Part shown: positions 16,111 to 49,184 of the stretch, in pieces | Layout: the number at the start of each line of letters is the position of its first letter | Position numbering within the stretch: position 1 is the first letter of the stretch | Translations under genes and position numbers: made by a program | Notes under the pieces: generated by a model | What the model saw: only the letters and a program-made list of their open reading frames with translations | Database searches by the model: none | What the model was told of the DNA's origin: nothing | IMG/VR virus record: IMGVR_UViG_3300045988_149975 | From: a virus | Length of the DNA stretch: 64,000 bases | Strand: one strand, 5' to 3'

Positions 16111-16496
16111 TATAATACCTCCTTTTTGTAGTCAGCATATTGTAATTGATAAAGTTTATCAATCAAAATATTTAAGTCTGTAGGCGTTCCTCTTGAGATT
16201 GCCTCCATTCCTTTGGTATCCCATTCATTGAAGTATTTTCTAATAGAATTATATTCTTTTTTAATTCCGAAGTTATAAAGAATAATTCCAATTTCATTTT
16301 CCGCTCCCTGCCAGTAGTCACTTATATTTTTTTCGCCTGCCGCTTTTCTCAAGTCAGCTATTAGTCTAACTCTTGCCGCTCTAAAATATTGCTTCAATAA
16401 TAATTCTTTATTATTTTTACTTAACATTTTTATATCCTCCTTTATATTCGGCAGGGCTTTTGCAGCCCTGCCTATTGTTTCACGTGAAACCGTCAA
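16110..16496 (-). CDS. hypothetical protein
   Basis: 128-aa ORF. Confidence 0.4.
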   Translation of the reverse strand: MTVSRETIGRAAKALPNIKEDIKMLSKNNKELLLKQYFRAARVRLIADLRKAAGEKNISDYWQGAENEIGIILYNFGIKKEYNSIRKYFNEWDTKGMEAISRGTPTDLNILIDKLYQLQYADYKKEVL

Positions 16497-25614: not shown

Positions 25615-27720
25615 TCAAGCCTTAAAATTGTAAATTGGCTTAATAATCTGTTTAATTTTAACAGTATCTTTAACAGCGTCTATAATCTCTTGTGCAGGTT
25701 TATATGCCATAGGTGCTTCATCAATAGTGGAATTATTAACTGATGTAGTATAAATACCATCCATAGTAGCCATATAATCTTTTAAATCAATTTTCTCTTT
25801 AGCTTCGCTACGGCTCATAATTCTACCTGCGCCATGAGGGGCAGAGAAGTTCCAATCAGGATTACCCTTACCCTCACCAATTATGCAGCCATCCCTCATA
25901 TTAAGAGGTATTACAACACTTTCTCCTGCTCTTGCAGAAATTGCGCCTTTACGAATAGTTCCATTAGCATAATAATTATGAATAGATTCTACTGTTTCAA
26001 CAGCTAACACATTAAAATGGTTTAAAATACGCTCTGCAATAGAAAGGCGGTTAAGGGAAGCAAATTCACAGGCAAGGTACATATCTTGTTTATACTCCTC
26101 TAAATATTCACCTGTAAGATGTTCTAAACCTTTAGGCAGTTTATTATCCTCTTTAAACTGAAGTAACCATTCTTGCCGTTTTTGTGGCTCAATAGTTTGA
26201 ATATGAAACTTAATCTGTTCCTTTAAATCACCTTGTATTTTTTCGGCAAGGGATTGATAATATTTTGCTACTTGATTACCAAGATTTCGTGAACCACTAT
26301 GTACTAATAACCATTGATTGCCCTCATTATCAATGTCTACTTCAATAAAATGATTGCCGCCTCCAAGCGAACCAAGAGAAAGCCTTAATCTATCAGTATC
26401 ATGAAAATGATCACAACAACGAAAAAGTTTTAAAGGGAAGTATTCCTGAATTTTCTCATTTACATCAAAACCTGAAGGAATAAACTCATTTATAAACATA
26501 TCAAGTTTTTCCAAATTTTTAATAGGTTTATTAAGTTTAACTGCAAGAATACCACAATTACCTGTAATTGATATTTTACTATTCCTTCTAATAACAAAAT
26601 AACCTGTATCAGTAGTAAAACAATACTTTAAACCATCCACAGATTTAACTGTTTCAATCTTATGTTCAGGAAATCTTACAATATCGTTTAAGGTTTCATA
26701 AACATTATATGTAGGATTCCATCCGTTATCATAAGTAATTACACTTATTCCTGCCCTAACACCACTGGCAGCAAAAGCATACTGAATTGCGTCTGCATTA
26801 CATTTAAGGGAGGTTGAAAATCTTGTTTTATTATTGCGAACAGTTCCATCCCAATACTTAATTTCGTCTATAACTACTTTTAATTCATTACTATTACATT
26901 GATAAAGAAAACTTAAATCTTTAACATACTCATTTTCAGAACCTCTAAAACGAATATTTGAAGTGCCGTCTTTCCAAACACTAATCCTGTAGTCAATACC
27001 TGCCTGCTTTAATAATTTGATAGCACGTTTAATTTTACGTTCTTTTCTAAAGTGAAGTTCAATCCACTGACTGCCATCTACATTATTATTTATATGCCCA
27101 TCAGCACTAACCATAATCATTAAACGAAGTTTAATATCTTCAATGCCTAAACCTTTAGAGTTTACATTAAAAGTGGTTTTAATACCTCCACTGATGCCCT
27201 TTTTAAGTGAGTTATGATGTTCTACAAAATCTTTTGCGGTATAATCACGAAGTTTATATCCTTTACCTTTAATGCCAATCCAAGCCAATATTTTATGTTC
27301 AGCACTAACACATTGGTCTAATCCCCCATCAGTGTTAAGGTAATAAAAATCCTCACAGGGCTTTTTAATATATAATAATGGGTGAGAAAACCTTGCACTA
27401 TCTGTATTTTTATCATAAATTAAAATCTGTTCTCCATCATATTCTGAAATCTTTTTCCAGCCGTTAGGGGTAAGAATTTCAGTATCTTTATCAAGGCAAC
27501 CAATATCTACCCCTATAACATTAGGGATTAAATATCTTACATTTGATGCAGTAAATCCCACCACACAGCCTTTTCCTGCATGATAGTCAGGCATAACGCA
27601 AATTTGCGCCCCTGAAAAAGATTTTAAGTTACAAAAATCTAAAATCTGTTCATAAGCAGTATCATCATATCTGTCAGAATAGATTATAGCGTCATTATAT
27701 TTACCTTTTACCTCAATCAT
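25615..27720 (-). CDS. rtcB: RtcB-type RNA 3'-phosphate ligase, interrupted by an intein
   Basis: Exteins QICVMPDYHAGKGCVVGF and VDIG|CGILAV match the RtcB DIGCG motif; C-terminal GGGNHF and PHGAGR motifs. The extein totals about 387 aa. Confidence 0.8.
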   Translation of the reverse strand: MIEVKGKYNDAIIYSDRYDDTAYEQILDFCNLKSFSGAQICVMPDYHAGKGCVVGFTASNVRYLIPNVIGVDIGCLDKDTEILTPNGWKKISEYDGEQILIYDKNTDSARFSHPLLYIKKPCEDFYYLNTDGGLDQCVSAEHKILAWIGIKGKGYKLRDYTAKDFVEHHNSLKKGISGGIKTTFNVNSKGLGIEDIKLRLMIMVSADGHINNNVDGSQWIELHFRKERKIKRAIKLLKQAGIDYRISVWKDGTSNIRFRGSENEYVKDLSFLYQCNSNELKVVIDEIKYWDGTVRNNKTRFSTSLKCNADAIQYAFAASGVRAGISVITYDNGWNPTYNVYETLNDIVRFPEHKIETVKSVDGLKYCFTTDTGYFVIRRNSKISITGNCGILAVKLNKPIKNLEKLDMFINEFIPSGFDVNEKIQEYFPLKLFRCCDHFHDTDRLRLSLGSLGGGNHFIEVDIDNEGNQWLLVHSGSRNLGNQVAKYYQSLAEKIQGDLKEQIKFHIQTIEPQKRQEWLLQFKEDNKLPKGLEHLTGEYLEEYKQDMYLACEFASLNRLSIAERILNHFNVLAVETVESIHNYYANGTIRKGAISARAGESVVIPLNMRDGCIIGEGKGNPDWNFSAPHGAGRIMSRSEAKEKIDLKDYMATMDGIYTTSVNNSTIDEAPMAYKPAQEIIDAVKDTVKIKQIIKPIYNFKA
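26557..27498 (-). mobile_element. intein with LAGLIDADG homing-endonuclease domain inside rtcB (about 314 aa)
   Basis: Starts CLDKDTEILTPNGW after VDIG. LAGLIDADG-like LRLMIMVSADGHI and VVIDEIKYWDGT. Ends ...ISITGN followed by Cys +1. Confidence 0.7.
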
Positions 27721-29968: not shown

Positions 29969-30207
29969 GAATTATTCTCCTTCCATTTTAAATAATCTTC
30001 TTGTTTAATAGAGTATATATTAGTATAGCCACATTTTGAACATACAATTTTGAAATAATATACCCCATCTATAAGATTTTCAACAAAATTAAATGTATGA
30101 TTGCAATTCCTCTTCCAACTCGACACGCTTATTACGTTTGTAAGGTTTTTTAGAGGAATGGACTCTTGTATAAGGTTTAATACTTCCCCAATCCTTTCTT
30201 TTTTCAT
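29965..30207 (-). CDS. Zn-ribbon protein
   Basis: C...CSKCGYTN. Confidence 0.35.
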   Translation of the reverse strand: MKKERIGEVLNLIQESIPLKNLTNVISVSSWKRNCNHTFNFVENLIDGVYYFKIVCSKCGYTNIYSIKQEDYLKWKENNS

Positions 30208-30261
30208 TATAATATTCCTTTCTATCTTTTTTACTGCGCTTATCTATTGAAATAAACATAA

Positions 30262-30495
30262 TTAACCTCTTTTCGGCGGCATTATATACGATTCACGATT
30301 ATGTATCACGGCTGTTATTAATTTGTTAAATACTTCATTGGCAACATCTCTATTATATTGTCCAAGACAATAAACATTGCCACTTTTAGAATAACTATAA
30401 ATATTAGTATAATAAGAACTTTGTTCAGTAATTTTTATGGATTCAATATTATCTGCATTTATAGCCATTTGTTTATCTTGTGTTATAATATACAT
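30262..30495 (-). CDS. hypothetical protein, tandem paralogue
   Basis: Similar to the next ORF (…TQ…NADNIESI… vs …TQEGSIVNANSIAEF…). Confidence 0.35.
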   Translation of the reverse strand: MYIITQDKQMAINADNIESIKITEQSSYYTNIYSYSKSGNVYCLGQYNRDVANEVFNKLITAVIHNRESYIMPPKRG

Positions 30496-30496
30496 T

Positions 30497-30709
30497 CTAA
30501 TCCTCCACTACAAATACTGCGTCATCTCTTACTAAAGCGTTGAATAGACTGTTAAGAACCTTTCTTGCTTTTACGGAATTATTTCTATAATCAGCAATTA
30601 CAATCCTTGTATCATCATTGAAATAAGCATTTACATATCCATTAAATTCGGCAAATTCTGCAATAGAATTAGCATTTACAATGCTGCCTTCTTGCGTTTT
30701 AATCCACAT
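30497..30709 (-). CDS. hypothetical protein, tandem paralogue
   Basis: See previous entry. Confidence 0.35.
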   Translation of the reverse strand: MWIKTQEGSIVNANSIAEFAEFNGYVNAYFNDDTRIVIADYRNNSVKARKVLNSLFNALVRDDAVFVVED

Positions 30710-30711
30710 AA

Positions 30712-31413
30712 TTAATCCTCCAATTTCATAATTCTATTATATAATACATAGAATGGTTTATAAACTACATCTAAATGGTAATGCCCCATAAACCATTTCC
30801 ACTTTTTCCCTGCTATGTGGGCATACAATAATTCCAAATTCTTGCAGCTTTCATCAACCTCATTAGGATTAAAAGGAATATTCTCATTTAAGAAAATTTT
30901 ATTACGAATGGAAAGTGGTGCGCAATGAGAAATTACATAATCAATATTATTACTGTTTTTAATTGCTTTATTTACTGCTTTAATTGATACCCTCTCATCA
31001 CGCCACCAATTTTTACCTTCAGTGCGATATTGTTTATCAAAACTTTCCGCACCTCCAATAAAAAGAAAACGCTTTCCATTAATCTTCAATACTTCCCCAT
31101 CAACTACACGATAACACTTTTCAGTGATTTTTTGTACTTTACCACCATAAAGTTCGGTAATAGGGAAAGCGGAATAGCGGGGAAAATTTTCATGATTCCC
31201 TGTTATAAATAACATAGTACACTTAATAGTTTTCATAAGTAAGTCTAATTCTTTACGTTCTACATTATAAAATTCGGGGCGAGTTTCCCAAACATATCCA
31301 AAATCGCCGCAGACAATAAGAACATCATCCTCTTTAACTTCAGTGATAAAAGGAAGTTTTAAAAGTTTTTTAGTATCTAACCCGCCATGTAAATCACCTG
31401 TAACATAAATCAT
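30712..31413 (-). CDS. PPP-family Ser/Thr (lambda-type) metallophosphatase
   Basis: YVTGDLHG, CGDFGYVWE, GNHE. Confidence 0.65.
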   Translation of the reverse strand: MIYVTGDLHGGLDTKKLLKLPFITEVKEDDVLIVCGDFGYVWETRPEFYNVERKELDLLMKTIKCTMLFITGNHENFPRYSAFPITELYGGKVQKITEKCYRVVDGEVLKINGKRFLFIGGAESFDKQYRTEGKNWWRDERVSIKAVNKAIKNSNNIDYVISHCAPLSIRNKIFLNENIPFNPNEVDESCKNLELLYAHIAGKKWKWFMGHYHLDVVYKPFYVLYNRIMKLED

Positions 31414-31585
31414 CTAATATCACTTTCCTCAATTTTATCATGAAAACCATCAGAATATCTAATAATGTAGGAGAATGGACTACTACCTATATTAACAGAG
31501 ATAATTTCTGCCTTTTCAGGCTTACCCTTATAGACTGTATTAAGTTTATCCCCTACATTAAACCTACTTTTAAATATTTTTTCCA

Positions 31586-31774
31586 TTATCTGCCCCCCAA
31601 GTTACTTTCAGGAAACCAACTACGCTCACGATTTTTCTTTTCACAAAGATAACAAAAGCAGCCCATATCTTTATTCCATTCTACATCTACAACAGTACAA
31701 GGTACTTCTGAATTAAAATGCTTTACAATAACTTTATCACCAGTATCAAACTTACTTGTTACTTCAAATTTCAT
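31586..31774 (-). CDS. hypothetical small protein (KFDxGDKV motif family)
   Basis: The SKFDTGDKV motif is shared with 34070..34477. Confidence 0.35.
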   Translation of the reverse strand: MKFEVTSKFDTGDKVIVKHFNSEVPCTVVDVEWNKDMGCFCYLCEKKNRERSWFPESNLGGR

Positions 31775-32171
31775 ATTAGCACCTCAACAATCCGCTATAA
31801 TTTCAAGAACACTTTTGTTTTCAATGTAATCATCTTCGGCGGCTCTTAATTTATAAATACCAACTTGATCGCCATCAATATTGATTACCAATTCCATATC
31901 GTCAGGAATCCTCACTTCCTCTAATATTTTCTTTAACATACCTACTGTAAACATTATTCTCCGCCCCCAACTAATAGAATATTTACAGGCATATCCGCAC
32001 CTCTATGAATTACAGCTACTTTAGTTAAAGGAAAGTCATCATCCAAACATTCAGAAGTGGAAACTGTAACTTCAGATTTTTCATTATATTGGTCTAAAAT
32101 ATCAACCAAATCTTTAATTTTCATCTTATCTCCTCCTTATGTATTAAGTATAGCATATAATATTTAATTTG

Positions 32172-32408
32172 TCAATCTTTTATAAAAATAAAAATCAACA
32201 AAAAGATAATGGATATAAGCCCTAAAATAAATGGTGCAATTACAAAAAGCCATCCATAAGGAAAAACGCCCAAAAGTTTTATAATACCTAAAATAATACT
32301 TAATAAAGCGCAGATAAGATAAAAGAGTAAAGTTCTTTTAAAAACCTTTTCAAAGAATGTATACATACCTACTTGCACCTCTCCATTAACATCTTTATTA
32401 CTATTCAC
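32172..32408 (-). CDS. small membrane protein
   Basis: Two hydrophobic helices. Confidence 0.4.
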   Translation of the reverse strand: MNSNKDVNGEVQVGMYTFFEKVFKRTLLFYLICALLSIILGIIKLLGVFPYGWLFVIAPFILGLISIIFLLIFIFIKD

Positions 32409-32410
32409 TC

Positions 32411-32791
32411 CTACTCTCCTAAATACTTTTTCCTCAAAACAGGTAAGGCAGCTTCACACTCCTCTTTTGTTTTAAATGCCATACCAGCCTCTTTTAAAGC
32501 AAAATCTGACGAATAACCTTCCCAAAAAGCAACATCTACACATTTAAAATAGGCAGAAGGACGGTAATATATGTCACCTTTTCTTGGCTGCCACGGAAGT
32601 TTAACAATTTTACATTCACCTTTTATTAAATCAAAGAACTGATATTCGGCGGGCAACCAGGCTCCATCACATTGGAAACACAATCCGTTTTTAAAAAATC
32701 TATAAACTTTATCTGAACTATCAATCATAAATTCTTCTTCAAGTTCCACACCAAGCATTTTTGCTACATCTTGCATATAGTTTTTAGCCAT
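32411..32791 (-). CDS. hypothetical protein, paralogue of 24705..25127
   Basis: See 24705..25127. Confidence 0.45.
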   Translation of the reverse strand: MAKNYMQDVAKMLGVELEEEFMIDSSDKVYRFFKNGLCFQCDGAWLPAEYQFFDLIKGECKIVKLPWQPRKGDIYYRPSAYFKCVDVAFWEGYSSDFALKEAGMAFKTKEECEAALPVLRKKYLGE

Positions 32792-32956
32792 AATTACTCC
32801 TCCACTATTTCATAATCATAATCAACACTTTCATTAAAAATCTCTTCTGCCATTTGTTCAGCTTCATAATCATCTACTTCATCATCAATTTCAAATTCTA
32901 CACTCTTATGAGTTCCACCGAAAGAAGTATAAATATTTACTTTTAATTTTTTCATT

Positions 32957-33193
32957 CTAATCTACCTCAATCTTAAACTGTTTCATTATTTCATTTGTAA
33001 GAATGTATACATTACCAAAATTATCCCTCATCATATAATCAGTATAAGTTGTAATAACTTTCTCCTGTTTAGTATGATTAAAACTTGAAAATGCCTTTGC
33101 TTCATAGATTTTATCCTTTGTAAAGAAAGCAGAATCTACTTTACATTTAAGCGTTAAGTATTTTGTATAATAGGAAAATCTTGAAGGAATCAT
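32957..33193 (-). CDS. hypothetical protein
   Basis: 78-aa ORF. Confidence 0.35.
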   Translation of the reverse strand: MIPSRFSYYTKYLTLKCKVDSAFFTKDKIYEAKAFSSFNHTKQEKVITTYTDYMMRDNFGNVYILTNEIMKQFKIEVD

Positions 33194-33636
33194 AAGTTTT
33201 TCAACTCCCTTGCTGTTTCCACAATAGACTGCATTAAAGTTTGTAATCCACTTTTAGAAATTTCACCTATATAGCTTACACCTCTATCTACTAATGCACC
33301 TGTACTGTCTACTACAGCATTGATGTTGTCAGGGGTAACATAAGAAGCAATAATCATTTTATAAACAGTATCTTGGTCAGGAATAAAAATCATCCCTAAT
33401 CCGCATACTACTAACATGGAAATGCCTGTACAAATCCCTCTCCACTGCATCTTTGCAAGTTTTTCATCTGTTCTTGTTACCCATGTATCATTAGTATAAA
33501 TTTCCTTGTCTTTATCTATCATAAAAGCAAAGAATGTAATCATCATTCCAAGGCAAAATAGTAGTCCGCAAGCTGATTGAATTTTCGGCAATAAATCAAC
33601 AAAATAGAAAAGCCAAGGTGAAATAATAGGCTGCAT
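33190..33636 (-). CDS. membrane protein
   Basis: Three predicted TM helices. Confidence 0.4.
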   Translation of the reverse strand: MQPIISPWLFYFVDLLPKIQSACGLLFCLGMMITFFAFMIDKDKEIYTNDTWVTRTDEKLAKMQWRGICTGISMLVVCGLGMIFIPDQDTVYKMIIASYVTPDNINAVVDSTGALVDRGVSYIGEISKSGLQTLMQSIVETARELKNL

Positions 33637-33639
33637 AAT

Positions 33640-34068
33640 TTATTCTCCTTTCAAGTCCCTTTGTAATGTTTTATAAATTTCCTCTGCTTTCTTAACTATT
33701 TCACTATTTGATAAATGTGAGGTATCTTTAAATACCAACCCCAAAGCAAGCATTAATAAATCTTTTGAATCATTATAACGAAAAGAGCCTTTACTCAATT
33801 CAATATTACCTTTAAACATTCCTGCATATACAACTATCTCACCCTCTTTAGGTTTCCAGTTAGATATTACTTCAATTTCCCCGCTTAAAATTTGTTTAAG
33901 GAAATAGGAAGTCATACTAACCCCTATATTATCTGCTTCAAAAATACCATTACTTTTTAAAACATAAGCACCAAGAGGTCTATCATGTGAAAGAACAGTA
34001 AAAGGTTTATCAAACTCTATATCAAAAGTTCTGCTGAACCACTCTAAAAAGCTACCTAAATAATTCAT
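33640..34068 (-). CDS. hypothetical protein
   Basis: 142-aa ORF. Confidence 0.4.
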   Translation of the reverse strand: MNYLGSFLEWFSRTFDIEFDKPFTVLSHDRPLGAYVLKSNGIFEADNIGVSMTSYFLKQILSGEIEVISNWKPKEGEIVVYAGMFKGNIELSKGSFRYNDSKDLLMLALGLVFKDTSHLSNSEIVKKAEEIYKTLQRDLKGE

Positions 34069-34069
34069 A

Positions 34070-34477
34070 TTAATTCTCCTTATATTTCCTCAAAGTAATA
34101 GAAGTTTTACCATCTGAAAATACATATTCATCATAATTATTAGCAGTGTTCACAGAAATTAAAGGCAAATCAAAATCAATATCTCCCTCAATACAAACAT
34201 TATATTCTGCACCTAATATAAAGGGGTAAAGTGAATCAGCAGGTTCAATCCAATCTTCCTCAATATGCTTACAGTCTTGCCCATTCTCAAATTTAACTCT
34301 GTAAACAAATCTATCATCTTCATAGGCTGTAAATACTACTTCACCTATATCTCCCTTGTTTATTAAAGAATCTTTTACAAAGGTTTTACAAATTCTTACT
34401 TTATCACCATTGTCGAATTTACTTTCTTTAACGATTCTCATTCTTAAACAACTCCTTAAAAATATAATACAGTACAT
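34070..34477 (-). CDS. hypothetical protein (KFDxGDKV motif family)
   Basis: SKFDNGDKVRI. Confidence 0.35.
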   Translation of the reverse strand: MYCIIFLRSCLRMRIVKESKFDNGDKVRICKTFVKDSLINKGDIGEVVFTAYEDDRFVYRVKFENGQDCKHIEEDWIEPADSLYPFILGAEYNVCIEGDIDFDLPLISVNTANNYDEYVFSDGKTSITLRKYKEN

Positions 34478-36443
34478 CTACTACAATACTATTACCTGCC
34501 ATTTTATAAAGCTGTGTATTACTTATTCCTTTACATACTTCAATATCCCTATCCTCAAAGCCCATAAGCCTGAAGCACTCTTTAGGAGTAAGTTTACGGA
34601 TTCTATTCTCAATTTTGTAGAGTCCTGTTTTAGCACCTAATCCACCTGCTTCACCTTTAAGAGTAACAGATAAACCGTTTACATCATACACCACCCTTTT
34701 AGCCTGTGGCATACCGCTTGTAAGTTCTGTAAGCTGTGGAACTACAACACCTGTTGCAATTCTATCATCATTTTGTAAGAAATTTGCTTGTGAAGTTTTA
34801 TAATAATTAGCTTTAATAGTTCTACAAGTACCATCCTTTTCAGTACCATAGGGCGTAACAGATTTAAAATGTTTGATGTAATCTTTAACTTTATCATCTC
34901 GCATAAAGTATCTATCCTCTACCTCATTTTCAAGCACATCCTTTAGACTTTTAGTAAGTGGAAACGGCGCAGGAAAGTTAAAACCTTTATCAATATCTTT
35001 CCTAATAGATATTATAAATACTCTTTCTCTCCTTTGAGGTATTCCATAATCTGCGGCATTTAATACCTTCCAATAATTATTATACCCCATCTCACTTAAA
35101 CAGTCAAGTATATAATTAAATTCTTTTGTAAATTTTTTACCAGTGAGATTTTTAACATTCTCACATACTGCATATTTAGGTTTGACAGCATCGATAATCC
35201 TTAAAGCGTCAAACACTAATCCGCTACGAGTTTTTTCACCATTATATTCCAACCCCATTTTCTTACCACTTACAGAAATATCTTGACAATTATGCACTAT
35301 AATGTTATTGACAGTATATGAATTATCATTTTCAACTTCAAGATTGAATACCTCGATAGGCTTTTCAATCATTTCAATAGCTTTAATAGGTACTGCTATT
35401 TTATCTCCTATAACTAATTGATGCAATGCTCTATCAGAAAACTGCGCATTATAACAATCTTTAAAACTATCTTTTTGTCTATCTTTTCTAATACTTGTTG
35501 TAGGTACTACATTATAAAGTTTAATAACAATTCTACACAACTGTAAAAACATCTGCTCATTTATAGTGCTAAACATAAAAGTTGCTCTATCTTTTCTTCT
35601 ATGCCCATCACCACTCATATAACCATCGAAGAATTTAGATAACTGTTCTTTATTTAAAGACACAACCCAATCAGGAATTTTCTTAATACCTGCTCCACTA
35701 CCACAACTATGTATTACAGATTCTAATTTATCATCTATAATTCTGAAGTCAATACACGTTCTTTTACTATGTCCTTCATTATATCTGATATTAGTTAAAT
35801 GTTTTATAAATTCCTCTTTCTTACCTGAACCAATACAAAATATGGGACGTTTCTGATAAAGTTTTTCACAATAACCGTCTGCAAAATATCTACCAAAAAG
35901 CCATAGCCTATCATCATCTAAATCTGTATAGGCAGACTCTGTATTTATATTATAGGTAATGAAATCTGTAAGTTTTAGATCTTTAGCCTTAACCCAAACA
36001 AACTCTCCATCTCTATAAACATATAAAGGATGCTCATTAGTTAAATAAAGATTATAAGCCCCTACCCCTTTAATATGTCTAATACTATTAGAAATTCTTG
36101 ACATCGTTCTTAAAACTTTTTGATAATTATTTGTATGTGTAAGTACATAATCACCTACAATTATATCTTCAATATTTTTATAACCACACTGCACTTTAAT
36201 TTTTGTTCCAGCAGGAACACATGGAAATCCATAAGTTACTAAATCTACTCCAGGAAGTTCGCCTTCATTTACTTTAGTAATATCCCAAAGGTTTAAACTT
36301 TCAGGCACGTTATGGATTAAGGAATATGCTTTACTTGCATACTTATCTACTTCACAATAGTTGACAAGGGTATAATTAATTCCCAATCTTTCAAGGGCTT
36401 TTTCAAAAGCCCCTATACCTCTAAACAAACTTAATAATTTCAT
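34428..36443 (-). CDS. DNA (cytosine-5)-methyltransferase split by an intein at the PCQ catalytic motif
   Basis: Motif I LFRGIGAF. Motif IV GFP-[intein]-CQ. C-terminal ENV and TRD. The extein totals about 360 aa. Confidence 0.75.
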   Translation of the reverse strand: MKLLSLFRGIGAFEKALERLGINYTLVNYCEVDKYASKAYSLIHNVPESLNLWDITKVNEGELPGVDLVTYGFPCVPAGTKIKVQCGYKNIEDIIVGDYVLTHTNNYQKVLRTMSRISNSIRHIKGVGAYNLYLTNEHPLYVYRDGEFVWVKAKDLKLTDFITYNINTESAYTDLDDDRLWLFGRYFADGYCEKLYQKRPIFCIGSGKKEEFIKHLTNIRYNEGHSKRTCIDFRIIDDKLESVIHSCGSGAGIKKIPDWVVSLNKEQLSKFFDGYMSGDGHRRKDRATFMFSTINEQMFLQLCRIVIKLYNVVPTTSIRKDRQKDSFKDCYNAQFSDRALHQLVIGDKIAVPIKAIEMIEKPIEVFNLEVENDNSYTVNNIIVHNCQDISVSGKKMGLEYNGEKTRSGLVFDALRIIDAVKPKYAVCENVKNLTGKKFTKEFNYILDCLSEMGYNNYWKVLNAADYGIPQRRERVFIISIRKDIDKGFNFPAPFPLTKSLKDVLENEVEDRYFMRDDKVKDYIKHFKSVTPYGTEKDGTCRTIKANYYKTSQANFLQNDDRIATGVVVPQLTELTSGMPQAKRVVYDVNGLSVTLKGEAGGLGAKTGLYKIENRIRKLTPKECFRLMGFEDRDIEVCKGISNTQLYKMAGNSIVVDVLYYIFKELFKNENR
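35289..36221 (-). mobile_element. LAGLIDADG-type intein (about 311 aa) inside the C5-methyltransferase
   Basis: Starts CVPAGTKIKV directly after GFP. LWLFGRYFADGY and LSKFFDGYMSGDGHR. Ends NNIIVHN followed by CQ. Confidence 0.7.
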
Positions 36444-36609
36444 TCGATAACCTCAATTTCATCTACCTGAAAATCTCTAATAATGCTAATGAAATTTAAA
36501 GCGCCGCCGAAGTGGTTATAGAGTTTATCTAATACTTCTTTCTCACTGTCGGCTAATACAATATACTGTTCTAACTTTCCATCATAATAAAATAGAATTA
36601 CACCATAAG

Positions 36610-36795
36610 TCATTTATTTTTCTCCTTTAAAATAATATCATAGCCTTTTACTCTTACTTCATTAATTAAATAATTTTCTACAACATCTCCGTATTTCTCA
36701 TTAATGTAATCTCTTACTTCCTTTCTGCTTTTAGCAGCATGGGTCATAATAACTTTATCACCGTAAAAATCCATCTGAACTAAATAGAGTTTCAT
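36610..36795 (-). CDS. hypothetical protein
   Basis: 61-aa ORF. Confidence 0.3.
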   Translation of the reverse strand: MKLYLVQMDFYGDKVIMTHAAKSRKEVRDYINEKYGDVVENYLINEVRVKGYDIILKEKNK

Positions 36796-37082
36796 TATTC
36801 CTCGCCTCCAATGTTTAACTCTTCTAATGCGTTAAATAAGATGTCATCCATTATTATAAGTCCTTCTTTGAGGAAAAGGTTATCTCCAATCTGACTAAAC
36901 ATTTGTCTTATAAGGTCATAGTCATCTCTTCTGAAAAGCTCTATATCCTCATTATATAACCCATTAATGCCCATTTTAACAGGGGTACTTGCCATAATCA
37001 GATAGTCGCCATTATAGCTATCTCTTACCCAAATTCTTTCAACTTCTACAATATCCTGCTGTTTTAAAAGCTGTACTAACAT
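36795..37082 (-). CDS. hypothetical protein
   Basis: 95-aa ORF. Confidence 0.35.
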   Translation of the reverse strand: MLVQLLKQQDIVEVERIWVRDSYNGDYLIMASTPVKMGINGLYNEDIELFRRDDYDLIRQMFSQIGDNLFLKEGLIIMDDILFNALEELNIGGEE

Positions 37083-37591
37083 TTTACCTGTCCCTCCAAA
37101 ATTTCTTTATAAAAATCATATTTACCATCTTTATCAGTAGTATAACTTCTGCCTGTAAGATGTACACCATCACTTAATAAAAACTTTTTAAAGTAATCAA
37201 TCTTTTTAAGGGTTCTCTTATCAAGTTTTCTATAAACTTCATCAAAATATTTACTGCAATTAAAGTTATAAACAATAGGGATTACTTTACGATTAAACCA
37301 TCTACGCTCTAAAACGTATCTAATAAGCTGTAAACCTTGTGCAACAGCCCTTGCAGCCCTATTAACATGATTACTGTAGTCAATCACTGTAATGTGACGA
37401 CCCATGGCAAGGTTAAGCAGAAAATCATTATCCAAATCCTGAATAACCATATCCCAATTCTTTTGTTCACATTGAGTAGATTGAATACGAATAAATCTTA
37501 CACTGCCAATAGGTTTACAGATTGTTTTTTCCTCATGTAATTCCCAATCCTTTAAGTATTCAATACCATTAGTAAGATTTAAGTAAATCAT
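37076..37591 (-). CDS. hypothetical protein
   Basis: 171-aa ORF. Confidence 0.4.
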   Translation of the reverse strand: MIYLNLTNGIEYLKDWELHEEKTICKPIGSVRFIRIQSTQCEQKNWDMVIQDLDNDFLLNLAMGRHITVIDYSNHVNRAARAVAQGLQLIRYVLERRWFNRKVIPIVYNFNCSKYFDEVYRKLDKRTLKKIDYFKKFLLSDGVHLTGRSYTTDKDGKYDFYKEILEGQVKC

Positions 37592-37665
37592 TTTATCACC
37601 TCATTAATAATGCCTTATCTTTGTACTTATTATAGCAAAGATAAGGCATCTTGTCAATAGGTAAA

Positions 37666-38130
37666 TTACATATTTTTTACTACACTTACATAATATCTAA
37701 AGGCTTTTCCTGGGGGAACATCTTTATCTGTAAGCCAAAGTTTAGTATAATTTACATAATAATCCGTATTATCACCAAATAAAGGCTTTAAATCACTGTA
37801 AGCCATATTAAGAACATAATACCAATCATAACTATTAAAATGTTCTTTATTAAAATCTATACCTGCTTTTTGTGCAAGTTGAATAGACTGTTCCACAGTC
37901 CAATGTCCACCCCTTGTACCGTCAACATTTTCCATTCCCCTTACAGCTTCGTCAGCAAGCATGGGAGTAAAACATTCACCATAAATAGCAGTATAGATGG
38001 CTTTGAACAGTTTTAAAGATTCTTCTTTATGCTCTTCAAAATAATTTTTAAAAAAAGTCATCATGAGTTTTAAAGCATCAGGATTACTTTCTGCTGCTGT
38101 AATTAAAGATTTAATATCCATAATTTGCAC
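37666..38130 (-). CDS. hypothetical protein
   Basis: 154-aa ORF downstream of promoter 37629-37657. Confidence 0.4.
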   Translation of the reverse strand: MQIMDIKSLITAAESNPDALKLMMTFFKNYFEEHKEESLKLFKAIYTAIYGECFTPMLADEAVRGMENVDGTRGGHWTVEQSIQLAQKAGIDFNKEHFNSYDWYYVLNMAYSDLKPLFGDNTDYYVNYTKLWLTDKDVPPGKAFRYYVSVVKNM

Positions 38131-38296
38131 TACCTTTCTTTCCTTCTAAAATATCATCAAAGAAATTCATAAAATTACTACCATAACCCTCAAAACATTC
38201 TTTATATATATCAGGGTCTATAATAGCCTTTTTGAACTTATCACACCCATAAGTATAGTTGAAATTTCTAAAGTATTTACACTCCCTGCACCGCAT
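38111..38296 (-). CDS. hypothetical Cys-rich protein
   Basis: 61-aa ORF. Confidence 0.3.
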   Translation of the reverse strand: MRCRECKYFRNFNYTYGCDKFKKAIIDPDIYKECFEGYGSNFMNFFDDILEGKKGSANYGY

Positions 38297-38480
38297 AGAA
38301 CTTTACCTCTTTTCCTGCATATAATTCAACCCAATCCTTTAACTCTACTATACAATCAAGTATATATGTTTTACCGTTTATTACAATATATACATCTTTT
38401 CCTGCCCTTAATCCAAGTAAATCATTGGATTTTAAAGTAATATCAGTATTAGAAGGTTTATAATTCATTTGTTTCTCCAT
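38277..38480 (-). CDS. hypothetical protein
   Basis: 67-aa ORF. Confidence 0.3.
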   Translation of the reverse strand: MEKQMNYKPSNTDITLKSNDLLGLRAGKDVYIVINGKTYILDCIVELKDWVELYAGKEVKFYAVQGV

Positions 38481-38667
38481 ACAAGATTACCTCACCATTA
38501 ATAAAATCTAAATCATCAATGTATGTACAAAAATTTTCATATTTACTATCAATACTAATAAAACATTCTACATTCCCTTGCTTATCTCTTACTTCAATGA
38601 GTGCATCAATAAGTTCATTTAATTTCATTAGAAATCCTCTCCTTTGCAATGTTGAAATAATTTTCAT
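38458..38667 (-). CDS. hypothetical protein
   Basis: Probable start MKLNELID with RBS GGAGAGG; overlaps the methyltransferase stop. Confidence 0.3.
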   Translation of the reverse strand: MKIISTLQRRGFLMKLNELIDALIEVRDKQGNVECFISIDSKYENFCTYIDDLDFINGEVILYGETNEL

Positions 38668-39326
38668 CTTTTTCTATTCCAATAAACTTACGATTATTCT
38701 TTAAAGCTGCTACACCAGTGCTACCACTACCCATACAATTATCCAATACTACATCACCTTCACTTGTATAAGTCTTAATAAAGTATTCAAGCAATGCAAC
38801 AGGTTTTTGTGTAGGATGTAATCTACATTTATCTTTATTAAAATCTAATACATCTACTGGATAGCGTTTTCCATCATTTACCGTTACTACTGATACTTGC
38901 TCTCCATAATTACTACTACCTCTACCACTTTTGCAGGTATAAGGTTTCCCTTCTCTAAATTGTGGATGGTACGGGGGGGGAGGAATAGAATACTAAAATA
39001 TTTTCATGGTTCTTTAAAGGCATTTTCTTTGCGTTTAAATGTCCTGTTCCCTGTGGTTTACGCCATATCCACTCATACTTGAGATTTTTGATATTGCTTA
39101 CACCTAATACCTTATCAAAAGGAGTCTGTGCAAAGAGTAGGATAGCACCATTATCTTTTATAATACGATTATATTCTTTCCACATTAAGTCCAAATCTAT
39201 AACACTATCCCATTTATTCCTTGTAGTACCAAAAGGCGGATCACAAAGAATTAAATTAACACACTTATCAGGTATATCTTTCATTACCTCTAAACAATCA
39301 CCTAAATACAATTTTAGTTTATCCAT
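38615..39326 (-). pseudogene. beta-class N6A/N4C DNA methyltransferase, frameshifted at a C8 homopolymer (candidate phase-variable gene or homopolymer sequencing error)
   Basis: N-terminal frame ends at 38955 and carries ...LILCDPPFGT... Coding-strand C8 at plus 38973-38980. With C7 the frame continues ...RLHPTQKPVALLEYFIKTYTSEGDVVLDNCMGSGSTGVAALKNNRKFIGIE... to a stop at 38615. Confidence 0.7.
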
Positions 39327-39886
39327 CTAACTACAGTTTCTCCTTTAAATCCCTTTTCCCAAATAAACCAAGCATAAGCAATCGCATTGGATGGGTATTT
39401 ATCAAAATCACCATTCTTTGCGCAAGAAAGCCTACCCCTTGCAACATATACATACTTTGGTGGATTTTCTTTATAAAATTCTCCACGCTCTTTGCCTTCT
39501 AAAAATTGAAGGCGTAAAAAGAACGCTACAGAGTTACCTTTAGGAATAATATCTAATGCGTGTTTCACAAATGGAAGTGCTTGTTTGTAAGGAGGATTAG
39601 AAACAATATCTCCGCCCCATTCAGTCACATCAAAGAAATTTTGTACCTTACCATATCCTCTATCATAAAGGTCAATACTTTCTACAATATAGTTAGCTTT
39701 TTCTAACTCTTTACTGATATGCCCCTCACCACAACAACACTCTAAAATTTTCGGAGCAAATTTGTACTCTGCAAGTAGTAATTGTACTGCTTTAGGCTGT
39801 GTAGCATAGTAATCCTCTAATTGCCTTTCTTCCCTTGAATGATTACTTGCACCAAGAGTTACATATACATTATGCTTTCCGTTCAT
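39314..39886 (-). CDS. phage Dam-like N6-adenine DNA methyltransferase
   Basis: EDYYATQP (DxxYTP-type motif), FxGxG-like CCCGEGH, IVSNPPYK. Confidence 0.6.
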   Translation of the reverse strand: MNGKHNVYVTLGASNHSREERQLEDYYATQPKAVQLLLAEYKFAPKILECCCGEGHISKELEKANYIVESIDLYDRGYGKVQNFFDVTEWGGDIVSNPPYKQALPFVKHALDIIPKGNSVAFFLRLQFLEGKERGEFYKENPPKYVYVARGRLSCAKNGDFDKYPSNAIAYAWFIWEKGFKGETVVRWIN

Positions 39887-40214
39887 ACTTAACCTCCAAT
39901 TTTACTTTAGTGCTAAATTCAGAGTCTTTCAATGCTTCAATTCTTTCTTTCAAATACTTACAGCAATTTTCCTCTGTCATTGTTTTAATAAATTCGCAGT
40001 TCTGTAACAAAACTTTCATTAAATAATCTTCAGTAGGGCAAAAATCGTACATTTTATCACTATGCGCTTTAAGCACATACCTATCGAATGTTACTGTTAA
40101 ATCAGTAATATAGCTACTTCCATAATCACAAGTGGGGCAGCCTTTAAAGGCTTCTTTATCATAATCAATGTTTACAATACCACCGTCTACTAATTTCATT
40201 AAATAATCTTTCAT
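39870..40214 (-). CDS. hypothetical Cys-rich protein
   Basis: CPTCDYG...C...CC. Confidence 0.35.
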   Translation of the reverse strand: MKDYLMKLVDGGIVNIDYDKEAFKGCPTCDYGSSYITDLTVTFDRYVLKAHSDKMYDFCPTEDYLMKVLLQNCEFIKTMTEENCCKYLKERIEALKDSEFSTKVKLEVKYERKA

Positions 40215-44840: not shown

Positions 44841-45025
44841 CTATCAAAGGAACGGTATAAAGGATTACGGCGAAGCCTATCTACTCTCGAACTTAACCTA
44901 TTCCATGTTCGCTGATTCCATGTCGGTCGATTTCGGCGTAAACGCCCTGTATCATTACGTTTAATGTCAATAGACACATCATTATTACTATTGCCTAATG
45001 TATTATAATCTTTTCTACTACCCAT
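44837..45025 (-). CDS. small Arg-rich protein
   Basis: 62-aa ORF. Confidence 0.3.
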   Translation of the reverse strand: MGSRKDYNTLGNSNNDVSIDIKRNDTGRLRRNRPTWNQRTWNRLSSRVDRLRRNPLYRSFDR

Positions 45026-45603
45026 TATAATTCCCCCATTTCATTTTTAGTTAAATAGAATTTATATTTCTGTGCTTCTCGCCATTTACAGTCAGTACAT
45101 TGTCCACAAGGCTCTCCTACATTATTTGCAAAATTACAGGAAAAAGTATCTTCTAAATTAACATTTAAAGAGCAGCCTATACGATACACTTCATCTTTAT
45201 CCTTGTCTATAAATGGTGCAATTACTTTATATTTGTCCTCAAATTCCACTCTTAAATAAGCATTTATAGCATCCACCCACTTTTGAGTAGTATCTATAAA
45301 TTCTGTATTAGCAATTAATCCTATATAAATATTAGCGTCCTTTGGATATACCCTATTAATTAATTCTAATACAAATCTTGCATTACGGCAAGGATTAAAA
45401 CCATCTTTTTCAATTTTGGAGCGCATTTTATCAAAATAATCAAACTCTTTATTCTCCAAAATTTCACCTACATTAATAAGTTTACTATCTGTATCTTCCA
45501 TAATAAAGAAAAATGTTTTAGGATTTAAACCTTTATGTTCCATCCATGCCTTCAACACTGTACTGTCATAACCATGACTCCATAATAAAAAATTATCTCT
45601 CAA
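45025..45603 (-). CDS. queC: QueC-like 7-cyano-7-deazaguanine synthase (PP-loop ATPase)
   Basis: Degenerate PP-loop LLWSHGYDST. C-terminal zinc motif CGQCTDCKWRE, of CGxCxxCxxR type. Confidence 0.45.
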   Translation of the reverse strand: MRDNFLLWSHGYDSTVLKAWMEHKGLNPKTFFFIMEDTDSKLINVGEILENKEFDYFDKMRSKIEKDGFNPCRNARFVLELINRVYPKDANIYIGLIANTEFIDTTQKWVDAINAYLRVEFEDKYKVIAPFIDKDKDEVYRIGCSLNVNLEDTFSCNFANNVGEPCGQCTDCKWREAQKYKFYLTKNEMGEL

Positions 45604-46304: not shown

Positions 46305-49184
46305 TTAACATTTACTATAGCCACAATTATTACAATAAGCACACTTACCATCAGGAATAAGAGTATACTCACCACATTCAGGGCATTTCATTTTGCCATT
46401 ATGAATATCATCCTTTACCTCATGAATAGCTTTCTGCGTTTCCTCTGTAAGTGCTTTTTCAAAAGTATTTTTAGCATCCTCTATAGCTGTCTTATTTTCT
46501 TGCAAGTCTTTATAAATATCTCTAATTGCACTTGCAATACAAGAAGCGCAAGATTTAGAAATATCTTTTCTACCGCTACGCATTAAATAACTACAAGCAG
46601 GACAGTTAGCGTTGCTTAACTCATCAGCAATATCTAATGCTTTACCACCAAGCCTTAAAGCATAGCTTGTAAGTCTTGCAATAGTAGAAATATTAGCTTG
46701 ACAGCCTGTTTCTGCACCTACAAAAACCTCAAAAATGTGATTATCTTTTACATTTACTGTTACATAAAAATTTCTTACACAAGCTGTATGGTAAACAAAA
46801 GTGCGCCCCCAAAGGGATTTCACTCCATTACGTTTAACAGGCTCAAGATTATCTAACTGTCTTGCTTGCATATCATCTACTGTAACAGGTTCTTTAATAA
46901 TCTCAACTTTTGGCACATGATTTTTAACTTCTTTATTCTCTACATCAGCACGTTTTACACCATGGTCAGTACCAAGGATATTAATGCGTTTGCAGTTATC
47001 ACGAAAAATAGTAATACCCTTACAACCATTTGACCATGCCTGCAAATAAAGGTTAAAAATATCATCTACAGTTGCACTCTCTTTAAGATTAATAGTAGAA
47101 GAAATTGCATTATCTACATAAGACTGCATAGTAGATTGTAAATCAACCCTATCCTTGGGGTCAATATCATAAGTATCTACAATATAAGGAAACTTTTCTT
47201 TAATCTGTTCAGCAGTAAGTTCATTGGGATTATAACCTCTAAATTTTAAAAGATTTTCCACTGCAAGCATATTAATATGGAAAGATTTACCTTCTTTTTC
47301 AAGAACATGAGTAGTTCTATCATAAGACACTTGATAGTATGGTTCTACACCACCACTTTCTCTAAAGAGCATTGAAATTGAACCGGTAGGTGCAATACTC
47401 AATAAAGTGCCATTACGCATATTTTGAGATAAATCCTTTGCCACTCTTGAAGTAAATCTGTACTGAATATCATGTACCATACCACTTTTATCAAATTTTT
47501 CTTTGTCAAATTTACCAAAACTACCCTTTTCTGCCCCTAATTTTGCAGAAGTGGCATAGGCAGTAGTCTGCATATTGCGCATAATAGATGCTATAAGTTC
47601 AATACTTTTTTGACTGCCATATTTAATACCCATTGCTACAAACATATCTGCCATACCAAATATGCCTAAACCAATGCTACGCCAATCATCAATACATTTC
47701 CTATTCTTATCTAAAGGTTGAAGTTCATAACCATAATCAAGAATTTCATCTAATGCGGTTACAGCATTTTTAACTGTATCACAGAATCGCTCCATATTGA
47801 AATGCGCCGTATCAGTATAAGGATTATCTACGAAGTTATAAAGATTAATACTACCTAAATTACAAGCATTATACTCTGAACCTGCAAATTCACCACAATT
47901 CCCTGTCAAAACACCATTGGCAATGAAGGTATGATTTTTAGGCTCATTCATACAATAAACAGTATCAACTACTTCTGCTTCTTCGATAGCTACAACGCTA
48001 ATTTTAGGGCAGGCATAAGCTGTTACAATAAAATCAAGGTCATTATTAAAAACAGGATGTTTATACCAATCTAAAGTGTCACCAACTTTTAAATCTTTAG
48101 CTTCAACTCTGCCGACATCCCTCAATACCCATTTATGGTAAGGGGTACACTGAACAGTAGCACCATTAGAGAATTTAATCTTTAAAGTCTTTTGGTCATG
48201 CCCTGTTACTTTAGGAGTAACTTTGCTCCACTCATAACCATTCCAAACTTCTACCTCTTTACCTGCTAATTCCCCAATAGGTTTATACCCCTTTTTAGTA
48301 AGAATAAGGGTATCACCAGTTACACAAGGGTTTGTAGTATCAATCCTATATTCATTAATAGGATAGCCACTCAATAAGTTACATTCTCTTACATTATCAA
48401 TAAATAATGCCCCAGGCTCTCCCCAATCATACTGCGCTTCACAAAATTTCCTAAAGAAATCTCTTGCATTAATTTCTTTTTTAACCTCTTCACCATTTTC
48501 TTCATTTTTAAAGTGCAACTCAAAATTCTCATTACTAATTACACTTGTCATAAAATCATCAGTGAAACATATAGAAATGTTCGCACCCTGAATTTTATCA
48601 TTATTCTGTTTAATAGTTAAAAATTCTTCAATATCAGGATGGTCACAATTCAAGGAAATCAGAATTGCTGCCCTTCTTCCGTTATTTCCAATAACTTCAC
48701 CAATTACATTATAGACATCCATGAAGGAAACTGCACCGCTTGAAGTCTTTGCAGAATTATTAACTTTAGCACCCTTTGGGCGAAGGTTACTCAAATTAAT
48801 ACCTGCTCCACCGCCAAAGCTAAAAATTCTTGCCATTTCCTTACCTACATCAAAAATAGATTCAATGTTATCTTTAGGTGAGGGAAGAATATAACAATTA
48901 CTTGTTGTGGCTCTAAATTTTCCTTTACAACCTGCTGCATAAAGTGTTCTGCCCGCAGGTAAGAAAGTACCATCTATAATACTCTCTACCATAAAATCTT
49001 GTAATTCTTTTGTAGAAAAAATACTTGATACTCTTTTAATGAAAGCATTAAATCCTGCATCAAAACCTTCCTGTTCTACAATTTTTAACTCGTCATCGTG
49101 CATATATTTTTTCTTTATAATATTTTGCGGAATTTCATCATCCCACCATACTTTATACATATTTACATTACTAATTCTACCCAA
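46305..49184 (-). CDS. nrdJ: class II (adenosylcobalamin-dependent) ribonucleotide reductase with mini-intein
   Basis: Active-site motif TNP-[intein]-CGEF. C-terminal Cys cluster CPECGE...CAYCNNCGY. About 816-aa extein. Confidence 0.75.
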   Translation of the reverse strand: MGRISNVNMYKVWWDDEIPQNIIKKKYMHDDELKIVEQEGFDAGFNAFIKRVSSIFSTKELQDFMVESIIDGTFLPAGRTLYAAGCKGKFRATTSNCYILPSPKDNIESIFDVGKEMARIFSFGGGAGINLSNLRPKGAKVNNSAKTSSGAVSFMDVYNVIGEVIGNNGRRAAILISLNCDHPDIEEFLTIKQNNDKIQGANISICFTDDFMTSVISNENFELHFKNEENGEEVKKEINARDFFRKFCEAQYDWGEPGALFIDNVRECNLLSGYPINEYRIDTTNPCVTGDTLILTKKGYKPIGELAGKEVEVWNGYEWSKVTPKVTGHDQKTLKIKFSNGATVQCTPYHKWVLRDVGRVEAKDLKVGDTLDWYKHPVFNNDLDFIVTAYACPKISVVAIEEAEVVDTVYCMNEPKNHTFIANGVLTGNCGEFAGSEYNACNLGSINLYNFVDNPYTDTAHFNMERFCDTVKNAVTALDEILDYGYELQPLDKNRKCIDDWRSIGLGIFGMADMFVAMGIKYGSQKSIELIASIMRNMQTTAYATSAKLGAEKGSFGKFDKEKFDKSGMVHDIQYRFTSRVAKDLSQNMRNGTLLSIAPTGSISMLFRESGGVEPYYQVSYDRTTHVLEKEGKSFHINMLAVENLLKFRGYNPNELTAEQIKEKFPYIVDTYDIDPKDRVDLQSTMQSYVDNAISSTINLKESATVDDIFNLYLQAWSNGCKGITIFRDNCKRINILGTDHGVKRADVENKEVKNHVPKVEIIKEPVTVDDMQARQLDNLEPVKRNGVKSLWGRTFVYHTACVRNFYVTVNVKDNHIFEVFVGAETGCQANISTIARLTSYALRLGGKALDIADELSNANCPACSYLMRSGRKDISKSCASCIASAIRDIYKDLQENKTAIEDAKNTFEKALTEETQKAIHEVKDDIHNGKMKCPECGEYTLIPDGKCAYCNNCGYSKC
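47898..48326 (-). mobile_element. mini-intein (about 143 aa, no endonuclease domain) in nrdJ
   Basis: Starts CVTGDTLILTKKG after TNP. Ends FIANGVLTGN followed by CGE. Confidence 0.65.

Follow-up and report, generated by a model that had tools for sequence, protein, structure and literature searches.

What interrupts the gene of a C5-cytosine DNA methyltransferase (Dcm) directly ahead of the codon for its catalytic cysteine, and how the interruption came to be there, are the questions raised by a locus in the virus record IMGVR_UViG_3300045988_149975 of IMG/VR. The 64,000-nucleotide stretch of this record that was analysed (the window, to which all coordinates refer unless a contig is named) has the content of a large tailed phage of low GC (31%). 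A sequence-only reading had proposed an intein of 311 amino acids (aa) in Dcm, a 314-aa intein at the DIG/CG motif of the RNA ligase RtcB and a 143-aa mini-intein at the NP/CGE motif of the ribonucleotide reductase NrdJ (slashes mark insertion points), and the coordinates and junctions of all three were reproduced exactly. The three inserts are very probably genuine class 1 inteins, two with homing endonucleases of the LAGLIDADG type and the third endonuclease-less. Elements of this kind are common and already on record, and the three represent ordinary intein parasitism and no new phenomenon. The Dcm precursor and its parts, in the direction of reading, are as follows.

34428-36443, minus strand: Dcm precursor gene (C5-cytosine DNA methyltransferase with intein), 671 aa, matching PF00145 (3.9e-66) and TIGR00675 (1.2e-67)
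36222-36443, minus strand: Dcm N-extein, aa 1-74, with motif I FRGIG and, as last residues, GFP of motif IV
35289-36221, minus strand: Dcm intein, class 1, with LAGLIDADG homing-endonuclease domain, aa 75-385, 311 aa
36192-36221, minus strand: intein block A, CVPAGTKIKV
within 36018-36044, minus strand: intein block B, TNEH
35871-35906, minus strand: LAGLIDADG-1, LWLFGRYFADGY (…RYFADGY)
35601-35642, minus strand: LAGLIDADG-2, LSKFFDGYMSGDGH (…YMSGDGH)
35310-35351, minus strand: intein block F, VFNLEVENDNSYTV
35289-35309, minus strand: intein block G, NNIIVHN
34428-35288, minus strand: Dcm C-extein, whose first residue is the catalytic Cys of PCQ
35145-35165, minus strand: motif VI, ENV
35016-35039, minus strand: motif VIII, QRRER
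34479-34502, minus strand: motif X, GNS

The junctions read TYGFP/CVPAGTKI…NNIIVHN/CQDISV, and the 2 kb of the precursor gene contain no stop codons or frameshifts. Both methyltransferase profiles, PF00145 and TIGR00675, match Dcm in two stretches, the C-terminal one resuming at profile position 71, and in searches of Pfam and NCBIfam the insert between them is recognised by Intein_splicing (45.8 bits, cut-off 35.8) and Hint_2 (29.9 bits, cut-off 28.4), with a weak match to the LAGLIDADG_3 profile. The two LAGLIDADG blocks that had been claimed were both located, each with its acidic residue. Without the insert, the spliced protein aligns with the methyltransferase M.HhaI (2.7e-53) unbroken over the junction, DLVTYGFPCQDISVSGKK against DILCAGFPCQAFSISGKQ, and retains the motif order I FRGIG, IV GFPCQ, VI ENV, VIII QRRER and X AGNS. 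The restored GFPCQ falls on Cys81 of M.HhaI (counted from the alignment), the motif IV nucleophile, so that the intein does lie directly ahead of the PCQ catalytic cysteine.

In an alignment of the Dcm intein with 22 homologues of 32-56% identity, the residues C1, T61, H64, V291, N293 and E295 are invariant, and D115/G116, D205/G206, D299, H310 and N311 are invariant or nearly so (at least 90%) over these 23 Dcm-site inteins. An AlphaFold2 model built from the homologue alignment (pLDDT 93.1, pTM 0.91) has as its top Foldseek matches the TliVMA intein (7qsu; E 6e-18, TM score 0.76), PI-SceI, PhoVMA and PI-PfuI, followed at lower rank by free-standing LAGLIDADG enzymes, with I-DmoI, I-SceI and I-AniI at E 7e-6 to 2e-4, and by mini-inteins. 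The model predicts the alpha-beta-beta-alpha-beta-beta-alpha fold of LAGLIDADG enzymes for the endonuclease part. The solved LAGLIDADG inteins (TliVMA/PhoVMA 7qsu, 7qss and 7qst; PI-SceI 1vde and 1lws; PI-PfuI 1dq3) likewise consist of a Hint domain interrupted by a double-LAGLIDADG endonuclease and match the model at E 6e-18 to 8e-13 with TM scores up to 0.77, although they share only 12-16% identity with the Dcm intein, are longer (360-540 aa against 311) and reside in V-ATPase or ribonucleotide reductase (RNR); PI-SceI, in addition, has an extra DNA-recognition region that the Dcm intein lacks.

The second precursor is that of the RNA 3'-phosphate/5'-OH ligase.

25615-27720, minus strand: RtcB precursor gene (RNA ligase with intein), 701 aa, matching PF01139 (1.3e-52) and the 'intein-containing RtcB family' NF052663
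26557-27498, minus strand: RtcB intein, aa 75-388, 314 aa, with block B SAEH, ending in ITGN before Cys+1
27094-27129 and 26842-26874, minus strand: RtcB intein LAGLIDADG motifs, …VSADGH and …KYWDGT

Its junctions read GVDIG/CLDKDTEI…SKISITGN/CGILAV. The insert splits the RtcB family match (1.3e-52) and itself matches LAGLIDADG_3 with 31.5 bits. Removal restores the DIGCG motif, aligned with DINCG of Pyrococcus horikoshii RtcB, IGVDIGCGILAV against IGYDINCGVRLI; counting along this alignment gives D95 and C98, the metal ligands of the P. horikoshii enzyme. A profile comparison with the Dcm-intein family (hhalign) reached 94% probability and E 1.4e-7 from Cys1 through both LAGLIDADG motifs; the RtcB intein is only a distant relative of that family, and a Hint fold is predicted for it from sequence.

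The third is the class II (B12-dependent) ribonucleotide reductase.

46305-49184, minus strand: NrdJ precursor gene (ribonucleotide reductase with mini-intein), 959 aa, matching TIGR02504 (1.1e-133) and PF02867 (1.9e-102)
47898-48326, minus strand: NrdJ mini-intein without endonuclease domain, aa 287-429, 143 aa, with block B TPYH, ending in LTGN before Cys+1

Here the junctions are DTTNP/CVTGDTLI…NGVLTGN/CGEFAG, and the insert matches Intein_splicing (40.6 bits, cut-off 35.8) and intein_Nterm (39.9 bits). The spliced protein aligns with Thermotoga maritima NrdJ (1.3e-79) as DTTNPCGEFAGSEYNACNLGSI against NSTNPCGEIGLSDYEACNLGSI, for which counting gives N320, C322 and E324; the restored TNPCGE therefore falls on Cys322, the thiyl-radical cysteine. 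At the site of the mini-intein, two related contigs (L007 and L008) have a full LAGLIDADG intein of 316 aa. On either side of the gap, the DNA of the window is 97% and 95% identical to these full-length relatives, and a linker of 80 nucleotides replaces 599, from which it follows that the mini-intein is an endonuclease-less derivative of the full intein. No empty NrdJ allele was found among the relatives. A word-indexed search with the mini-intein returned three weak matches and missed even relatives of 95% identity, those from IMG/VR.

All three inserts begin with Cys (CVPAG in Dcm, CLDKD in RtcB, CVTGD in NrdJ), possess the block B signature T/S-x-x-H (TNEH, SAEH and TPYH, respectively) and end in Asn followed by a host Cys (HN/C in Dcm, GN/C in both RtcB and NrdJ). 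In each, the reading frame runs continuously through the insert and the boundaries lie exactly on codons. With the inserts taken out, all three host proteins align unbroken over the junction with solved structures free of inteins, so that the failed motif reconstruction that would have refuted the sequence-only reading did not occur. A phmmer comparison of each intein with all open reading frames (ORFs) of the window indicates that the three are not recent copies of one another, and the same search yielded no fourth intein. That all three use a catalytic or ligand Cys as residue +1 deserves notice, although inteins of RtcB and RNR are normally found at just this site.

Natural alleles also support the boundaries. 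A search with spliced Dcm recovered uninterrupted Dcm proteins of 359-360 aa at 97, 95 and 89% identity, and contigs syntenic with the window were found at 94-97% DNA identity (L004 and L006) and 78-88% (L005). The blastn alignments to these relatives break exactly at 36219/35288 in Dcm and 27497/26557 in RtcB, overlapping only by the duplicated Cys codon, so that inserts of 933 bp and 942 bp, respectively, are precisely missing. Junction alignments show the Dcm intein to be exactly absent from L004, L005, L006 and L012, and the RtcB intein from L004, L006 and L025. The empty sites in L004 or L006 read …TATGGCTTCCCC/TGTCAAGAT… for Dcm and …GATATTGGT/TGTGGTATT… for RtcB, and the empty RtcB site of L006 is identical to the spliced sequence of the window over 82 nucleotides at the junction. 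The junctions predicted from the sequence are therefore exactly those carried by intein-free homologues in nature. Two further relatives were taken from IMG/VR, and the distribution over the six close phage contigs is as follows.

Window: Dcm intein present; RtcB intein present; NrdJ mini-intein
L004: Dcm empty; RtcB empty; NrdJ not covered
L005: Dcm empty; RtcB intein present; NrdJ full intein (1144-aa product)
L006: Dcm empty; RtcB empty; NrdJ mini-intein
UViG_3300045988_142217: Dcm intein present; RtcB gene deleted, 3' remnant only; NrdJ full intein
UViG_3300045988_161036: Dcm empty; RtcB empty; NrdJ full intein

In IMGVR_UViG_3300045988_142217, RtcB is gone except for its last ~64 codons (L031, 462-695), a deletion indicating that RtcB is dispensable in this lineage. 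Between them, these contigs present every stage of the intein life cycle across three genes at once, namely the empty site, the full intein, an endonuclease with a mutated catalytic Asp, an endonuclease-deleted mini-intein and loss of the host gene, and the set could be used for population-level studies of homing in uncultured phages.

The divergence of the inteins relative to their hosts carries signatures of transfer. Over the 933 nucleotides of the Dcm intein, the window and L011 (IMGVR_UViG_3300045988_142217) differ at 16, with a proportion of synonymous differences (pS) of 0.044; over the 807 nucleotides of the host-gene parts they differ at 43, with pS of 0.22 and 0.17 (Fisher p = 5e-5). 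Similarly, nucleotide identity of RtcB between the window and L005 is 93.7% in the intein, against 88.7% and 84.9% in the host-gene parts (p = 1e-9). The flank of Dcm is L004-like in the window and L006-like in L011, yet the inteins are 98.3% identical; hence the Dcm intein has moved between host-gene backgrounds. Taken together, inteins less diverged than their host genes and near-identical Dcm inteins in different backgrounds indicate horizontal homing, and the ratio of nonsynonymous to synonymous differences (pN/pS) inside the inteins, 0.14-0.25, indicates purifying selection. In GC content the inteins (29-37%) do not stand out from their host genes or from the window as a whole (31-34%), and accordingly there is no foreign-DNA signal. 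In L004, three silent changes occur in the three codons adjoining the empty Dcm site. They were considered as a trace of co-conversion and rejected as specific evidence of it, since the GFP codons vary at these wobble positions among all alleles, whether or not the intein is present.

On the canonical class 1 pathway, splicing would begin with an N-S acyl shift at Cys1 of the intein, followed by attack of the host's own catalytic Cys (+1) on the thioester, cyclisation of the terminal Asn with release of the intein, and an S-N shift that would produce a normal peptide bond and restore PCQ, DIGCG or NPCGE. The +1 residue so employed would be the motif IV nucleophile in Dcm, a metal ligand in RtcB and the thiyl-radical Cys in NrdJ, and all three enzymes would be inactive before splicing. 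During co-infection, the endonucleases of the Dcm and RtcB inteins would cleave alleles that lack the intein, at these same codons, and recombinational repair would copy the intein in. The NrdJ intein, having lost its endonuclease, would persist only through retained splicing.

Set against the observed anatomy, in-frame boundaries, polymorphism among relatives and transfer signatures are several points that weigh against three active inteins. Actual splicing and DNA cleavage are predicted here from sequence. A penultimate His, common in inteins albeit not obligatory, is present in the Dcm intein (VHN) but missing from those of RtcB and NrdJ. For the RtcB intein, Pfam gives no direct match to a Hint profile, a sequence search of solved structures gave nothing significant, and the single-sequence AlphaFold2 model is unusable (pLDDT 36). 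Alignment of the allele junctions revealed no specific co-conversion tract at the Dcm site. Finally, endonuclease decay occurs in the lineage, as LAGLIDADG-2 of the L011 intein reads GYMSGGGH for GYMSGDGH; the catalytic Asp is lost in an intein otherwise 97-98% identical to that of the window, and the substitution may be an early step of such decay.

The endings require a closer look. The …TGN ends that the sequence-only reading had noticed in the RtcB and NrdJ inteins are indeed there and depart from the usual HN, but they are no local oddity, being conserved in the RtcB and RNR intein lineages, among homologues at 25-40% identity: in Bacillus phage JBP901 and in Pseudomonas phage PS119XW the RtcB intein reads GVDIG/CVDK…AITGN/CG, and relatives of the NrdJ intein in L009 and L010, at 39-51% identity, retain …NGMLTGN/C. 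Retention of the penultimate Gly in homologues marks it as a lineage trait and argues for function and not for decay. Experiments cited in PMC4031507 (Chen, Benner and Perler 2000) have demonstrated that splicing can proceed when the penultimate His is absent. In the RNR alpha subunit of Staphylococcus phage St1.CM (L023), the intein ends in …GILTGQ/CSE, its last residue being Gln rather than Asn.

The missing penultimate His of two inteins would also suit an explanation in which the inserts are intein-derived but no longer splice, so that the interrupted Dcm, and possibly RtcB, would be an inactive pseudo-enzyme in the course of being lost. Such loss is compatible with the dispensability of Dcm and RtcB in the clade, where one relative keeps only the last ~64 RtcB codons, and with the frameshift that the neighbouring N6/N4 methyltransferase has in the window. 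We nevertheless consider it unlikely, since the splicing-block residues are intact and invariant or nearly so over 23 homologues, the pN/pS inside the inteins stays at 0.14-0.25, Dcm preserves motifs I, IV, VI, VIII and X in 2 kb free of stops and frameshifts, and NrdJ, which is probably needed, has the same TGN-type ending. Removal of the inserts as RNA, that is, as group I or II introns with an in-frame LAGLIDADG ORF, is highly improbable. Group I introns that encode homing endonucleases are frequent in phage genes, and LAGLIDADG enzymes occur in introns and inteins alike, but Rfam detects only tRNAs in the window, the reading frame continues through the inserts, their first residue is Cys and their last is an Asn with Cys next to it, the endonuclease domain is flanked on either side by matches to the Hint and Intein_splicing profiles, and the predicted fold matches whole inteins beyond the endonuclease alone.

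An assembly chimera or contig mis-join can be given almost no credence, even for a window that seems metagenomic and has no near match among GenBank phages. The same Dcm intein recurs with identical junctions in independent contigs of other samples (L011 at 97% aa identity and the P0005 cluster at 99-100%), as does the RtcB intein in the 93% identical copy of L005, and the inserts are in frame with boundaries exactly at codons. Bacterial intein-like (BIL) domains were considered as well. These are Hint domains in variable, non-conserved proteins, usually without the pair of C-terminal Asn and nucleophile and with no homing endonuclease; the invariant catalytic-motif sites, the Asn followed by Cys and the two endonucleases rule them out. 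The BIL domain 2lwy is a weak, partial Foldseek match of the Dcm intein model at rank 24. With genuine class 1 inteins thus preferred, it may still be asked whether those at the P/C site serve the phage. The adjacency of Cys1 and the catalytic Cys+1 is the ground for the idea of a conditional switch, in which, for example, a redox-sensitive disulfide between Cys1 and Cys+1 would delay splicing and thereby time methylation of phage DNA. If so, motif IV inteins would not be purely parasitic; we regard this as quite doubtful.

How exceptional the Dcm site is was addressed by an exhaustive phmmer search with the Dcm intein over 1.84 billion cluster representatives (clusters at 50% identity), which gave 6287 matches at E <= 1e-3, 84 of them at E <= 1e-30. 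Of the best 145 clusters, at least 100 show the pattern xxP/C…N/C(Q or T)…ENV, and in all ten clusters sampled the match to PF00145 breaks off after its N-terminal part and is taken up again at profile position 71 (104 once). A tblastn search of GenBank phages with the Dcm intein also revealed same-site inteins in genes annotated only as cytosine methyltransferase. The description of a C5-methyltransferase as an unusual intein host was therefore overstated: the same site is filled in several cultured phages and in at least 100 of the 145 best clusters. Inteins in motif IV (P/C) of C5-methyltransferases form a very large and almost undescribed family of thousands of sequences and at least 100 clusters at 50% identity.

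Among the cultured phages, Lactobacillus phage Nyseid (MG765276) has FGFP/CSPAGT…IIVHN/CQDIS with 44% identity to the whole Dcm intein, Escherichia jumbo phages of the genus Asteriusvirus (e.g. ph0011, OP557969) have GGFP/C…VVHN/CQAWS, Dmt of the P1-like RCS47 (FO818745) has GGTP/CFTAGH…AVVHN/CQAFS, and Mannheimia phage 587AP2 has a same-site intein, but in a disrupted gene. These four share the insertion point and the class 1 LAGLIDADG organisation with the Dcm intein and differ from it in host phage and in sequence (25-44% identity). Pseudomonas phage Lana and Propionibacterium phage B22 appear in the tblastn list with intein matches under methyltransferase annotations, at the level of the match only. 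In the metagenomic protein P0216 (810 aa), a C5-methyltransferase with a motif IV intein also contains an HNH_3 domain at aa 677-720, and the gene was apparently invaded twice. Many of the intein-containing methyltransferase gene calls among hits P0001-P0029 are 450-540 aa long, below full precursor length, and several end soon after the intein in unrelated residues, which suggests genes truncated or mis-called at contig ends.

Literature searches for an explicit account of inteins at motif IV of C5-methyltransferases turned up only the bare listing of C-5 methylase (IPR001525) among actinophage intein hosts in a 2025 preprint (bioRxiv 10.1101/2025.01.02.630785). The mycobacteriophage methylase inteins DNMT-1/2 are located in N6/N4 enzymes (Kelley et al. 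2016, PMC5050341), and Gosselin et al. 2023 (PMC9957025), whose methylase inteins are described without any mention of cytosine or C-5, is taken to concern the N6/N4 type too. The mycobacteriophage inteins resemble the Dcm intein in their orphan phage methyltransferase hosts, patchy distribution and horizontal transfer; their hosts, however, are N6/N4 methylases (PF01555) with an unrelated core and no nucleophilic Cys, in contrast to the PF00145 enzyme described here, where Cys+1 is the nucleophile. The catalytic-Cys site of C5-methyltransferases is thus a common intein target that is barely mentioned in GenBank annotations or the searchable literature, which may be relevant for the annotation of phage methyltransferases, often split or mis-called. 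Protein engineering may also profit from motif IV inteins, as compact inteins of the Cys+1 type.

The other two hosts are well represented among known systems. RtcB inteins number 27 in bacteria and 10 in archaea, and RNR is among the two commonest intein hosts, with 211 bacterial and 43 archaeal cases (PMC4760082). Phages JBP901, BCP8-2, PS119XW and Lederberg have RtcB inteins of the LAGLIDADG type at the same DIG/C site with the same ITGN/CG ending, and the window's intein shares 34-40% identity with these cultured-phage copies. Further known RtcB inteins are that of P. horikoshii PH1602, presumably at the DIG/C site, and those covered by NCBIfam families NF038162 and NF052663. For NrdJ, 384 phage records match a full-length relative of the intein, and the RNR of Staphylococcus phage St1.CM is interrupted as SNL/C…TGQ/CSE at the same structural site. 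Compared with the inteins at N-x-/C-x-E of RNR, the window's copy lacks the endonuclease domain and occupies a class II NrdJ and not a class I enzyme.

Free-standing homing endonucleases add to the mobile elements of the window. At least five of the HNH type had been counted; four are supported and no fifth was found in the window.

127-789, minus strand: HNH endonuclease, 220 aa (HNH_3 32.1 bits; phrog_99 7.5e-32)
6783-7247, minus strand: HNH endonuclease in the tRNA cluster, 154 aa (phrog_10822 2.5e-23; weak Pfam HNH match)
7644-8423, minus strand: HNH endonuclease in the tRNA cluster, 259 aa (phrog_10822 4.6e-25)
60565-61155, minus strand: HNH endonuclease, 196 aa (HNH_3 33.8 bits; phrog_59 5.3e-43)

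The two genes lying between tRNAs are paralogues (phmmer 2e-20 between them), and they are the only ones so related when the HNH proteins are compared with the ORFs of the window. A scan of the window with Rfam at gathering thresholds found no group I intron, only tRNAs. The tRNA cluster itself (5786-8693) comprises 8-9 genes (Pro, Thr, Trp, Glu, Asp, Ser, Ile, Leu and one detected by Rfam only).

The closest sequence relatives of the window are all metagenomic: megablast of positions 30000-40000 against GenBank phages gave a single 95-bp match, and an exact look-up of the 671-aa Dcm precursor returned no record. In addition to the three precursors, the window codes for PolA, RecA, a DnaB-like helicase, primase, DNA and RNA ligases, dUTPase, ArdA, SpoVS, QueC-like and radical-SAM proteins and the 8-9 tRNAs, a gene set consistent with a large phage infecting a low-GC host. 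A QueC-like ORF (45025-45603) and a radical-SAM ORF (50417-51058), the latter QueE-like in our reading, lie on either side of the NrdJ region and suggest 7-deazaguanine modification of DNA; together with the anti-restriction gene ardA (16493-17116), Dcm and the N6/N4 methyltransferase, they provide the phage with several layers of anti-restriction equipment.

The N6/N4 DNA methyltransferase gene (~38613-39326, minus strand) is frameshifted in the window at a homopolymer, the poly-C tract at ~38975-38990. The tract reads TCCTCCCCCCCCGTA (C8) in the window and TCCTGCCCCCCCCCGTA (C9) in L005, where the gene is an intact one of 237 aa; the difference could reflect a phase-variable tract or a homopolymer sequencing error. 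In L006, the gene is reduced to a 50-aa remnant. The latter contig also possesses an additional 299-aa radical-SAM ORF at its positions 13045-13944, which is cleanly missing from the window at 32404/32405 and is another insertion/deletion polymorphism of the same gene block.

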